Shown here: positions 30,130 to 35,145 of the stretch, in pieces
Layout: each line of letters begins with the position of its first letter
Numbering within the stretch: position 1 is the stretch's first letter
Position numbers and translations under genes: made by a program
The notes under the pieces: model-generated
What the model was told of the DNA's origin: nothing
The model's input: only the letters and a program-made list of their open reading frames with translations
Databases searched by the model: none
From: Octopus sinensis
Lineage: Eukaryota
Direction of reading: 5' to 3'
Length of the DNA: 46,313 nucleotides
Assembly (NCBI RefSeq): GCF_006345805.1
Contig: NW_021834671.1
Location: 1 to 46,313 of the forward strand

Positions 30130-30303
30130 GCATAACGGCATTTCGCCAGTCTGCAAGTTCTGAGTTCAAATTCCGGTAGGTCAACTTTGCCTTTCATCCT
30201 TTCGCGGGGTCAAAGAAATAAGTACCAGTCGACCACCAGGGTCCATATAGTCGACTTATCCCCTCCCACCAAATTGCTGACCTTCTGCCAACATTTAAAA
30301 CCA
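30130..30303 (+). mobile_element. SINE family B copy upstream of PA28-like exon 1
   Basis: GTTCTGAGTTCAAATTCCGGTAGGTCAACTTTGCCTTTCATCC. Confidence 0.7.
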
Positions 30304-30519
30304 AAATTAAAGAAATTTCTGTTCAAAGAATAACATTTGAATATCAGAAAATTCGATATTGTTTCAGTCTTTAGAAATATTCTAATTATTGCTTGGAATG
30401 TTTTATTCTTCTTCTAATGATGAATCCATTATAAATTTTTGTAGAAGCAGCAGTGGTTGGTCGGTTGTAGCTTGAGGAAGTCTTTTGGAATCGGCGTCTT
30501 CATACTTTGGCAGGGAATC

Positions 30520-30840
30520 ATGAACACGCGGGTTTCCCTAAAACGTTCTTTAATTACCAACTTCAGTCGGAGAGCTATCAAAGACGCCGAGTTACTCATT
30601 TCTCAGTGTTTCCCCCGTGAAATAGATGAATTAGAAGACATTGCTTGTTACAACATCGGCACTATAGAATCGCGCCTCTCTAACCATATTGATTTTGTCT
30701 CCAATGAGATTACAACAAAATATGCACAGTTAAAACCAATTCTTCAGAACCTTGAAGCCCACAATTCATTAATTAGAAGCTGGGTGACGTTTATTTCTCG
30801 GGAATTTCAGACGTTCAAAGATGCTGGCAGTTTAACTTCG
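30520..30840 (+). CDS. Divergent PA28/REG (11S proteasome activator, PSME-family) protein, coding exon 1 (aa 1-107)
   Basis: ATG at 30520 and phase-0 donor TCG|GTAAAC at 30840/30841. Translation NFSRRAIKDAELLISQCFPREIDEL...SN...LKPILQNLEAHNSLIRSWV aligns by eye to human PSME3 as I recall it (SFRERITSEAEDLVANFFPKKLLEL...SN...VKPEIRLLIEKCNTVKMWV). Candidate upstream acceptors at 30444 (TTTTGTAG) and 30513 (TTTGGCAG). Confidence 0.8.
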
Positions 30841-30874
30841 GTAAACAAATAAATCTTTTCTTCAAATTCTTTTT

Positions 30875-31268
30875 GGATCTTTTCGGTTTGAACGGCAGTT
30901 TCATATGAAATTGTCACCCATAATTATAACCCTAGTATCGATCAATTGCATTTCAATCTGTTTTAGGGTTAGGGGTGGGGGTAAGGGTATATTTTTTTCT
31001 TCACAAATGTAAATAAACCCAATCTGTTTCTTAAACGGGGGACATATACGGCACAGAATGTTTTCAACTCAATAGACGTCATTGATTGGTTGAAATTACA
31101 GAAATTGAAGAAAAACAACAACAAATATCTTACAAACTATAGAATTTTCTCAATACAGCCAAGGGAAAAAGATGCTTTACAAACCCATTCTACCAGTATA
31201 CGAAGTTTAAAAGTGTTTAGTTACGTGGAAATTATTTCAAAAAACTGCCGTTCAAACCGAAAAGATCC
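30875..31268. mobile_element. MITE with perfect 27-bp terminal inverted repeats, in the intron of the PA28-like gene
   Basis: GGATCTTTTCGGTTTGAACGGCAGTTT at 30875-30901 and its exact reverse complement at 31242-31268. No clear TSD. Confidence 0.85.
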
Positions 31269-33176
31269 AGAACGAGTTTATTCTAGAGGCAGGAAACGCC
31301 GTCATAGGATTGAACGCCGAACAACTTTATTAGAAAGCAAACACTCTACCCACCCCCCATAGCAATTCCGATGCCCAGCGTTCTCTTTCGTTCGTTGCCT
31401 GTGAAAATGCACGTTGTGTGTTGTGTGTGTATACATGCTTTCTGTATGAGTAGATTTGTCTATAGCTTTCTTCTCCCCCAAACTCTGCTAATAGAACCCC
31501 CCCACCCCATATATATATATATATATATATATATGTGGGGGGGAGGGTATTTTTTCTTTTCTTTTCTCTACTTCCTCTCCAGAGATTCTTCGACAGAGAT
31601 AACCGGTTGCTCGAATTAAAACCGATACATCACTCCTCCTAGTAACGATGTATTTTATTAAAACGCCACCACCGACTCCACCATGCACCGATGGGCATCG
31701 CTTTTCTTTTTATTTCATTTTCGAACATTTTTCTTTATCTTTTGGTTTTCTTTTGGATGGTTGGGAGTATATTTCTTATGTTGGATAAAATATTACTTAT
31801 TGACGAAGGAAAGATCAATTATTGATGTGGAATATTTATATTGGAATACGCTAATAGAAATAATGGCCAGAAAAAAGCAAGTTTCGACTAAGTTTTTAAA
31901 TTTCAAGGCGAGGAATTTCGTTGTATTTCAACATTTTTGAACTTCCACCGTGGGCCGGGGAGTAGGTTTAAGTGTTATTAAAGTTGGTTAAATCCTTCGT
32001 ATGTCACTTTACCTCACGTGTGTGTGTGTGTGTGTGTGGTGGCTGACTAAAGAAAGAACAGCTGCATTTGTGGAAACTTAGTTTCAAGAAGTTAATGTCT
32101 GCCGACCGAATTCGTGGGTCACAGAATCTGACCGCTTGGTCTTTTTTTGTCTGCTGTGAGGAGAGAGAGAGAGAGAGAGATAGTTTATTGGCTGTTGAAG
32201 AGAAAAAAAAAACACGTGTCTCTGTTGCTTTCCTTTCTGCTGTACAAATTTATCAGCAGGCTCTTTCTTTCTTTCTCTCGAAATCGTTAAACTCGGAGTC
32301 ACAATTAAAAGATTCGGTTGCCAATCACTACACTACAAAGGTAGAAAAACCATAGCTAATCGGAAAATCTTTCCACATTTCCCTTAATGCTATAATCACG
32401 GAGTTAAGGACAATCCTCGCATCAGCTCCCAATCCATTTAGACCCCTTTCGCATTCAACTTCTTTCAATAAAACCTCATATTATCCTTGTATTACATTCC
32501 CTGGTAGGTTTTTGGTGAGATTACGACCCAGGGATTTCCTTTTCAGCTGAAACTACAAGCAAAAGGCATAAAAGTTGAATACCTCAACATCTCCTTTCTC
32601 TACAGGTGTGTGTACTCGTATATCAAATCTGATCTAGATGCCCAACAATAAAACCGTTCCAGGCGTGACCATTTTTTGTTCTCTTTTCAAATAGCCTGCA
32701 TACAGAACCACTTTGTCTAATGTCCTTCCATTTTTTTTCAAGCCGGCAGGGTCAGAAATAGTGTTATTTATGATTACTTGTAGCCCAGCCGATCTATGAT
32801 GAGAGGGATCCCATCCTTAACCAGCCTGCGGTATTTTCAGAGGCACGGCACTAATATATCCCTGCCAGAATTAAGGCTGTATCATGTGACAAAAAATTGT
32901 AATTGCTATTTCTAGCAGGTTTAGCGACCACTTTCCTTTGCTGGCTAGTTCGTAATTAATTGCACAAGGTTACTCGCCATGTGAGATTGAGTTTTTATGT
33001 ATACTCTTTTTGTCCTTAAGGTGGGATGGTCATTGCTGGAATAACTTTGACCACAAATCTAATCATTGCTGACCTGGAGCTAAATAACTTTTAGAATCCA
33101 CCTAAATATCTTAAATTGTTTTATTTGTTCTACAATTTTTTTTGTCGTAATTTTTTTTTCAATTTATCTCCCGCAG

Positions 33177-33452
33177 GAAGAATCGTTTTCCAAGTTACAA
33201 CAAGTGGCTGATTATTGCAAACAATCTTTGGATAATCTTTCTGCCTACGTGTCTCAGAATGAGAAACTGACGGAGAAATGTAAAAGCTACGAAGATGAGG
33301 TTTTCTATCAAGAACTGGAATACCTCAATAAGCGTCACTTATGCCGGATTAATTCGATGCCACAAGAAATAAGAGAGAAATTCCTCATTCTGACCAGTGT
33401 AATCTTCAGTATACTTGCAATATTGCGACCGATTCAATCTGCAAGGAATTGA
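33177..33452 (+). CDS. Divergent PA28/REG protein, coding exon 2 (aa 108-198, stop TGA)
   Basis: Strong pyrimidine tract plus CCGCAG|GAA acceptor at 33176/33177, phase 0, compatible with exon 1. EESFSKLQQVADYCKQSLDNLSAYVSQNEKLTEKCKSY aligns without gaps to PSME3 EETVAELRTVESEAASYLDQISRYYITRAKLVSKIAKY. Ends ...LRPIQSARN*. Confidence 0.8.
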   Translation, partial: EESFSKLQQVADYCKQSLDNLSAYVSQNEKLTEKCKSYEDEVFYQELEYLNKRHLCRINSMPQEIREKFLILTSVIFSILAILRPIQSARN

Positions 33453-33665
33453 GCTCCGAATACCGTTAATTAGTTTCAATATAAGCAGTACTGGTTTTTT
33501 TTTTTTTCATCTTTGGAATTGATTTTAATTGAAGCAATTTTTTTCTTTACTCGTTGTTTGTTAACCGTTAATGTCATAAACCCCTTCACACAAGAGACAT
33601 GGATGTGAGATTTGTATTGGATTTATGGTTTGATAATTCACCTTTTAGTATCTTAGAGAGAGAGC

Positions 33666-33860
33666 GCGGCTAGCTGGCAGAATCGTTAGCACCTCGGGTA
33701 TTGCGTCTGCCGCTACGTTCCGAGTTCAAATTCCACCGAGGTCGACTTTGTCCTTCATCCTTTCGGGGGTCGATGAATTAAGTACCAGTTGCGTACTAGG
33801 GTCGATCTAATCGACTGGCCCCTCCCATCAAATTTCAGCCCTTGTGCCTATAACAGAAAG
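33666..33860 (+). mobile_element. SINE family B copy between the convergent genes
   Basis: AGCTGGCAGAATCGTTAGCAC head, GAGTTCAAATTCC and core. Confidence 0.75.
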
Positions 33861-34318
33861 GAGAATCCTTAGCCCCCCCCCCGGGTTAAATACTTAGCGA
33901 CATTCCCTAGAATAGTCGAAACCAATATTCTATAGAGGGAAAGGCATAAACGTCACGCACTCATAGTATGTTGTCCCTTCTAAGCCTCAATCAATAGAAT
34001 AACGTACCAAAGAATAATTGTGTTGATATTTTTACTTCTCTTCTTCCCCTTGAAGCATCATTTAAATCAATAATCTATTAATAGACAGATGTTGACAATC
34101 CTAGTTAGACCTCCCTCCAAAACAAACACAACTCGCTCCATCGTTTTCTAATGTTAAACTCAATGAATTCTTTGTCTTTTGTTTTTATGGACCATTCCGA
34201 GTTAAGTTGCCAGTATTAACAAAAATAAGATCCATCTCAAAATGGTGGACAGACCCGCATTATCTTCTGCTCGGTCGTTGTCCGAGGCAAAAATGAAACG
34301 CCGTAATCTTCATAAACT

Positions 34319-34553
34319 TTACAAGTCAATCGAGTCAGTAGGTGGGGGAGGGTCACGCCGGGCGATGAGGCCGGTGTACTGCAGAGCCGTCAAGAGAAAG
34401 TCCCTGAAAGAGTACGGATTTTTTTCCTGACGGCCCTTAAACCTAGTGGCGTCTGGTTTGCAGAACTTTTGCATGGCAGGGCTTTCACGGGCAAGCTGTT
34501 TGCAAGTTTCTACAATGACCTCCACTTGGTTCGATCTCCTCTTTCTAGTGGAA
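34319..34553 (-). CDS. Probable terminal coding exon of an unidentified protein (..STRKRRSNQVEVIVETCKQLARESPAMQKFCKPDATRFKGRQEKNPYSFRDFLLTALQYTGLIARRDPPPPTDSIDL*)
   Basis: GC-richer, non-repetitive open frame of 77 codons. It starts just after a TTTTAAG acceptor with an in-frame TGA immediately upstream, and ends at TAA 34321-34319. No family recognised. Confidence 0.45.
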
Positions 34554-35145
34554 CTTAAAATTCAGAAATGGATTTTTGCCACAAACTAAAATAATTCCCA
34601 ATTTCCCTTTGTCCTCACTCTTCGCTGCTTTGTTACAATTAGAAAAATATCCGCACTTCTTTATCAAACTTGATTTCATAATGGGTAGATAAAATCAATA
34701 GGAGTCATATGTTGTGATTAATCTAATCGATTATAATCTGCCCACAAAAAGTCATGGCCTTGTGCCATTCTTAGAAATGATGCAAAACTGGCACAAACAG
34801 AATATAATGCTAAAAGATGTAGATTTTTGAATTTCATTCTAAGTTTACTCTATCTGGCAGAAAACCCCCCGTTTGAAACTGGTATAACAACCTTCAGACT
34901 TGAACACTTAACAACCAGTTTGCAGGATGCAACCAGTATTTAAAATATCTCAATGCCGCGCGTAAATTATTATTTTTAACTCTAATAAAAATAACTCTCC
35001 TTGTGTGTATGGATCAGATACAGCAACTCCTCGGCTACCGCAGGTGTTACATTCCAAAACTCCCACGCGATATGCCAAAATCCGCGAAGTAAAAACAAGT
35101 ATTGTAGTGTGTATTTTTTATGTTTCTATGTTTTGTATGTATTTA

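Follow-up and report, generated by a model that had tools for sequence, protein, structure and literature searches.

Introduction

The activation loop of 11S (PA28) proteasome regulators is described in a review as invariant, and the same review states the rule that the C-terminal tail carries Pro at -10 and a terminal Tyr (PMC10526260). Both elements have been probed by mutation. PA28alpha/beta loop mutants are reported to bind the 20S proteasome without activating it, a loop mutation in beta only halves activation, removal of 5-6 tail residues abolishes 20S binding, and PfPA28 binds with just one tail inserted (PMC7854634). For PA28gamma (PSME3), G150S and N151Y are reported to give no activation and P245Y no binding (PMC2265109). 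Here, a two-exon gene at positions 30520 to 33452 of an Octopus sinensis contig (NW_021834671.1 in GCF_006345805.1; plus strand) is analyzed, which encodes a PA28 homolog lacking both loop and tail. The window is the entire 46,313-base contig, C11142, of a 2.72 Gb genome. An initial annotation, made from the sequence alone, had proposed a non-activating PA28 paralog.

In vertebrates and tunicates, rapidly evolving PA28 duplicates are already known alongside a slowly evolving PSME3 (PMC4453063). Tunicates are reported to have four PA28 genes, three of them fast-evolving (Fort et al. 2015, PMC4453063); the main text of that paper leaves molluscs unmentioned. Proteasome-independent roles have been described for PA28gamma (PMC2265109, PMC7915322). 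In the literature searched, at abstract level and largely outside subscription papers, neither a description of this gene nor a natural loop-less PA28 was found.

Results

The window gene encodes a PA28 homolog with a predicted four-helix fold

The gene was modeled from ATG at 30520 through a donor GT at 30841 and an acceptor AG ending at 33176 to TGA at 33450-33452. Its two exons (30520-30840 and 33177-33452) are joined in phase 0 into an uninterrupted frame of 198 aa, in agreement with the initial annotation. The translation is identical to P0004 (XP_036355773.1), an Octopus sinensis protein labelled 'uncharacterized' in the database, and a protein on record for O. vulgaris differs from it by 1 residue. 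The features of the gene, with predicted helices and compared with the ortholog of Argonauta hians described below, are as follows.

30520..30840, plus strand: coding exon 1, codons 1-107, with helix 1, a short linker, helix 2 and the former activation loop
30646..30687, plus strand: short linker joining helix 1 to helix 2, aa 43-56, where PSME3 has a ~45-aa longer insert with KKRR; 2/14 residues shared with Argonauta
30799..30828, plus strand: activation-loop position, REFQTFKDAG for P[KR]IEDGNNFG; 1/10 shared with PSME3 and 1/10 with the Argonauta ortholog, length kept
30841..33176, plus strand: sole intron of the coding sequence (2336 bp, GT..AG), in phase 0 and 19 codons past Trp, the place of the PSME3 IQ|E intron
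33177..33452, plus strand: coding exon 2, codons 108-198 and stop, with helices 3 and 4 and a shortened tail
33303..33338, plus strand: family motif FYQELE(Y/F)LNKRH (aa 150-161), with which helix 4 begins; 11/12 identical in Argonauta, unlike PSME3
33429..33473, plus strand: tail region, PIQSARN, stop, leftover APNTVN and second stop

As judged from its sequence, the homology of the window protein to PA28 is beyond chance. The Pfam PA28_C profile matched with 30.9 bits (cut-off 20.9, E 2.7e-7), the best PDB sequence match was human PA28gamma (7yqd, E 4e-5), and Atlas features scored 0.92. The profile match suggested initially was thus borne out for PA28_C and not for PA28_N, which stayed below its cut-off (17.6 bits vs 21.2).

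The AlphaFold2 model of the window protein (pLDDT 84) shows four long helices at 3-42, 57-95, 108-145 and 148-197, as the initial annotation had supposed; it was built from an alignment of 81 rows, 76 of them PSME3, and therefore leans on the PA28 family. With this model, Foldseek listed PA28 chains exclusively (best TM 0.72), and the top 21/21 rows of the VIA structure comparison were PA28 or PA26 chains (Z 12.9-14.8). No PA28 row was among those listed by the Atlas structure search, and a four-copy complex prediction scored 0.01 in a run that did not use the alignment and carries no weight in either direction. The four-helix PA28 fold is a prediction, and the window protein is classed as a PA28-fold homolog and not as an activator.

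Activation loop, insert and docking tail are lost

The octopus genome also encodes a canonical PSME3 (P0008; contig C10, nine coding exons, 242 aa), so that the window gene is an extra, lineage-restricted paralog as first proposed. Octopus PSME3 has IPKIEDGNNFG as its loop, contains PSKKRRLD within the insert and ends in KKPRSANAENLY. The window protein is 22-23% identical to it and shares PA28_C, the predicted four-helix fold, the residues FP, KP and W and the phase-0 intron at W+19. In contrast, the loop, the KKRR-containing insert and the Tyr tail of PSME3 are all missing, and one coding intron is present instead of eight.

Alignment to human PA28gamma (7yqd) was gap-free from Trp88 to EE, with R94-G103 opposite P145-G154 and the Gly alone kept; the ungapped match and the replaced loop read by eye in the initial annotation were thereby reproduced. 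The PSME3 set used for comparison comprised 120 listed of 493 matches, chosen by likeness to one octopus exon and hence canonical by selection. P[KR]IEDGNNFG was found in 112/120 of these, 7 others starting after the loop and 1 being gapped through it, and the loop was present in 80/80 full-length matches listed. The same loop occurs in human PA28alpha and gamma, mouse PA28alpha and Plasmodium PA28.

The loop position of the Argonauta ortholog reads HDANRPNDMA, and because only 1/10 residues is shared there even among paralog orthologs, no replacement loop motif appears to be under selection. This bears on the idea that the window protein is a divergent activator with a novel loop and tail, possibly paired with a specialised 20S. 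Trypanosome PA26 is reported to be highly divergent and yet to activate (PMC4453063), and the loop length is kept in the window protein. PA26 also has the short helix 1-2 linker, a very divergent sequence and the same fold (Z 13-14, the octopus fold being predicted), but it keeps a recognisable loop, docks by its tail and activates, and a review describes its loop as still similar to that of PA28 (PMC10526260). In addition, the chromosomal octopus 20S alpha genes numbered at least 7, one of each type, and duplicated alpha subunits were not found in this search with one short profile. A divergent activator is therefore very unlikely.

The insert is missing as well: PSKKRRLD of octopus PSME3 has no counterpart in the 198-aa window protein, as initially noted, and neither a KKRR-like run nor a PSME3-type insert was found in P0004, P0126 or P0002 (the O. 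vulgaris protein matching the intronless copy described below).

In the full-length PSME3 matches listed, the terminal Tyr was present in 80/80 and Pro at -10 in 77/80. The window protein ends in RPIQSARN, with the last Pro at -7, a final Asn and no Tyr, which confirms the non-Tyr terminus noted initially. The last Pro is at -7 in P0004 and P0002, at -14 in the relative P0005 and absent from Argonauta P0126, which ends VILNLTQT without a tail. Relative to the canonical register, the tail is 3 residues short in the window protein and has 4 residues too many in P0005. In P0005 the frame stays open into a tail ending ...NTVN, which is matched by the DNA following the stop of the window gene; the present stop has therefore probably shortened the tail at a later time.

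The loss of the docking tail argues against a decoy cap, in which a ring of the window protein would occupy the 20S alpha ring, leave it closed and block 19S, PA200 and PSME3. PA28 loop mutants do bind without activating (PMC7854634, PMC2265109), PfPA28 is reported to bind with a single inserted tail (PMC7854634), and the Octopus protein still has R-P and a short tail whose carboxyl end is free. However, the binding energy comes from the tail, whose trimming by 5-6 residues is reported to abolish 20S binding (PMC7854634), and this tail is out of register in Octopus and missing in Argonauta. The analogy drawn in the initial annotation with PA28alpha N146Y requires an intact tail, and both this analogy and the decoy role suggested there are weakened. 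We consider such a cap very unlikely.

The engineered PA28 mutants (alpha N146Y/beta N136Y, gamma N151Y, G150S and P245Y, and tail truncations) resemble the window protein in having lost loop or tail function. They are single laboratory lesions, whereas the octopus gene is natural, selected and has lost both elements. Vertebrate PA28alpha/beta (PSME1/2) are likewise fast-diverged PSME3-like duplicates and are the best structural matches (TM up to 0.72). In PA28alpha of human and mouse, however, the loop is identical and the Pro/Tyr tail still present, and rings of alpha/beta are activating; the window protein has neither element.

The paralog is conserved in its helices since before the Octopus/Argonauta split

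Relatives were searched among 1.84 billion representatives, with 5 matches at E <=0.001. The Argonauta hians ortholog (P0126) has an open frame of 200 aa, is 42% identical and has the same short linker. Between Octopus and Argonauta the paralog is identical at 73/160 helix positions and at 3/24 positions of the two loops (Fisher p=0.0017). Because the Argonauta ortholog retains the helices and not the loops, the paralog is taken to be old and under selection. In simulations of neutral substitution (substitutions only), both frames stayed open in 1/4000 cases at 44% identity and in 0/4000 at 37%. With frames open in both genera and helix-biased conservation, the gene does not, on the sequence evidence, look like a pseudogene; a cephalopod ortholog, for which the initial annotation had suggested looking, exists.

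PSME3 itself evolves far more slowly, at 96.7% identity between Octopus and Argonauta against 42% for the paralog. This difference is relevant to the possibility that the paralog dampens PSME3 by joining it in mixed seven-member rings, each copy taking away a loop and a tail; lacking KKRR, it may in addition keep PSME3 outside the nucleus. Mixed PA28alpha/beta rings exist in the family, and a loop mutation confined to beta has the halving effect cited above (PMC7854634). The helices and their lengths are kept, and the role requires no loop and no tail. The dampener fits badly, however, because the PSME3 partner is frozen at 97%, and a subunit fitting a near-frozen partner would be expected to be more constrained and PSME3-like. 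Of the PSME3 columns conserved at >=95% (80 sequences), the window protein keeps 17/66, and many of the residues on which the paralogs agree are seldom found in PSME3. Such a subunit is possible but doubtful, and the dominant-negative role suggested in the initial annotation is likewise a mere possibility.

Two unnamed fragments, P0003 (70%) and P0005 (83%), are further relatives. P0003 continues into an intron-like VNK at the intron place of the window gene, from which the intron state of the relatives is inferred. In the tree, three paralog rows grouped together (100/99) and joined P0127 (98/96), all on very long branches. A clade of the paralogs with cephalopod PSME3 was neither recovered nor rejected (p-AU 0.36), and the tree would date the duplication no closer than before the Octopus/Argonauta split.

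P0127, an unnamed Logan protein of 251 aa, has no activation loop and no tail Pro and shares a few derived residues with the paralog, but has an insert and basic runs. From the paralog side it was the nearest match outside the family (53.7 vs 46.8 bits; 44.8 vs 27.2). Its own best matches were canonical PSME3 (up to 72 bits), with no reciprocal best match and a long branch. P0127 is either a distant relative of the octopod paralog or an independent loop loss. The tunicate PSMEb/c/d genes offer a parallel from another lineage: they are reported as independent invertebrate duplicates with long branches, accompanied by a PSME3 that evolves slowly, and as conserved across species (PMC4453063). The initial premise that invertebrates typically have a single REG-gamma-like gene has a published exception in the four tunicate genes. 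In freshwater mussels there appear to be two PSME3-like proteins (P0065 and P0129 in Sinanodonta); P0128 keeps loop and tail.

Intron loss and an intronless copy point to a probable RNA intermediate

The intron of the window gene follows the Trp by 19 codons, which is the ancestral IQ|E position shared with octopus PSME3, a point that the initial annotation had asked about. None of the remaining seven coding introns of PSME3 is present, and the window gene therefore likely arose, or was reshaped, via RNA. Its likely origin is an RNA-mediated or intron-losing PSME3 duplicate that retained 1/8 coding introns.

A second, intronless open copy of 198 codons was found at C2:37318280-37318873 (minus strand), with 86% protein identity to the window gene, and a protein identical to it is on record for O. 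vulgaris (P0002).

30141..34074, plus strand: outer limits of the stretch that, minus the intron, is shared with the C2 copy at 90-91% identity

The matching window bases are 30141-30841 and 33176-34074, and the exon matches abut in the C2 copy. The intron is thus exactly lost at an unlinked site, as in a retrocopy. Neither a poly(A) tract nor a target-site duplication was found at the ends of the shared stretch, and it is therefore termed an intronless copy, likely RNA-made. The exact intron loss and its inheritance imply that spliced RNA was reverse-transcribed in germ-line cells.

Between the window gene and the C2 copy, dS is 0.097 and dN 0.059. The ratio is 0.61, with a bootstrap range of 0.31-1.38 that includes 1. 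There were 0 indels in 594 coding nt and 10 in 994 flanking nt, some of these in homopolymers. Of 26 aa differences, 14 were assigned to the C2 copy and 6 to the window gene, with 6 left unassigned (14 vs 6, p=0.12).

The very fast evolution, the variable C-terminus, the recent-looking stop and a window/C2 dN/dS range that spans 1 would fit a transcribed duplicate that is decaying without function. Against this, the ~200-aa frames are open in Octopus and Argonauta at 42% identity, where the neutral expectation is <=1/4000, identity is concentrated in the helices with 11/12 of the motif conserved, no coding indels separate the window and C2 copies, and spliced contigs exist. Functionless decay is already mostly refuted.

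The window gene is found in spliced form

The splice across 30840/33177 expected initially was recovered as the joint 30839->33176 (GT..AG, cut +1) in contigs of runs X2 and X8 (two studies, 97% likeness). The runs are assembled contigs whose RNA status is guessed or unrecorded, none being recorded as RNA. The X2 splice contig has 42 nt on its short side and 2 differences from the window, the X8 contig 30 nt (tool bar 31 nt) and 0 differences, and a second X2 contig across the same stretch shows 16 differences. The spliced contigs are accordingly assigned to the window copy and not to the C2 copy. In X8, depth was 173-305 for exon contigs and 4-11 for intron contigs. In run X6 (76% scanned), one contig was unspliced from the intron into exon 2, and part of exon 1 was uncovered.

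C2-like contigs were seen in runs X1 and X2, and the C2 copy may be transcribed too. A minor alternative splice in X8 joins window 32203-32605 to 33177 at depth 11 and is likely non-coding, since an upstream open frame and ATG are absent. Contigs of X1 and X2 (1.7-1.8 kb; window 33973-34500 and beyond) extend past 34500. The AATAAA nearest after the window stop is at 34984, and the 3' UTR may therefore exceed 1.5 kb. Related SINE-like high-copy repeats flank the gene on both sides, with another repeat at the intron start.

30141-30300, 30895-31270 and 33660-33850 of the window: high-copy repeats, at very high depth in all runs

Among 23 other open reading frames of the window (179 listed, the remainder mostly simple repeats), no Pfam match above cut-off was found.

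Other PA28-like and proteasome genes in the assembly

A divergent PSME3 at C9497:225430-226350 has 24-nt introns, with the IQ|E intron present. It was rejected as a second octopus paralog, as it keeps the loop, has the tiny introns and is accompanied by another complete set of proteasome alpha genes, seven in all, which lie on unplaced contigs (C9073, C8907, C9002, C8702, C8459, C10215 and C7512). Dicyemids are reported to have tiny introns and octopus hosts (PMC6736024), and since both agree with the C9497 gene, it and the second alpha set likely derive from the genome of a dicyemid kidney parasite mixed into the assembly. A match on contig C9 showed no PA28 similarity when re-tested and was rejected. 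At C19:47699050, an octopus PSMA3-like alpha gene is an intronless open frame of ~250 codons, and an intron-bearing copy was not found in the search.

Discussion

Since loop and tail are gone without a conserved substitute and the helices are under selection, we rank first the reading that the window protein is a PA28-fold protein working off the proteasome, as a small helical scaffold for some other partner, with a probability of about 0.5. The protein would neither bind nor open the 20S proteasome: single loop substitutions suffice to abolish gate opening in human PA28, and the tail varies in length and end residue across the orthologs and is absent in Argonauta, which argues against docking. 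The conserved helix surfaces would carry the new function, in self-assembly or in contact with another partner. The start of helix 4 lies, in the PA28 architecture, towards the end facing away from the proteasome. The FYQELE(Y/F)LNKRH motif there may be the key surface, as a subunit-subunit contact or an outside binding site. Self-assembly into a ring is assumed from the family. With KKRR lost, the protein would be cytoplasmic, and since a spliced copy has become part of the inherited genome, the gene would be expressed in the germ line.

Several points weigh against this reading. The fold model was built largely on PSME3 (76/81 alignment rows), a single-sequence model made with no alignment is poor (pLDDT 52), Foldseek gave no rows with E < 0.001, and Z values of ~13-15 are modest for helical bundles. 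The loop length (10 residues) is kept, Octopus also keeps R-P near the C-terminus, and the alpha-gene count, coming from one short profile, is a lower bound. Taken alone, the window/C2 dN/dS would be compatible with neutrality. The documented proteasome-independent role of PA28gamma in MDM2-p53 is reported to use the insert (PMC2265109), which is lacking here. A review notes that loop mutation can also block stable heptamers (PMC10526260), and a ring of the window protein may therefore not form. The positive half of the scaffold reading, another partner, is itself inferred.

More speculatively, the gene could encode a natural octopod 'pseudo-activator' that, in PSME3 rings or in a ring of its own, turns off ATP-independent proteasome activation in the germ line or redirects it; we regard this as a tentative proposal of low likelihood. 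If mixing with PSME3 does occur, 11S activation would have an endogenous inhibitor in this protein.

Beyond the initial annotation, the analysis adds the Argonauta ortholog, the intronless C2 copy and the tail loss that argues against a decoy. The impact is limited by the narrow range in which the gene was found, Octopus and Argonauta. Within it, a natural PA28 member that has long been kept in the absence of loop and tail uncouples the PA28 scaffold from proteasome activation, and provides a route to asking what the PA28 fold does without the proteasome, less than 5% of cellular PA28gamma being reported as 20S-bound (PMC7915322). Should P0127 be a relative, or else a separate instance, PA28 paralogs disarmed in this way would form a class of proteasome regulators that recurs and is as yet undescribed.

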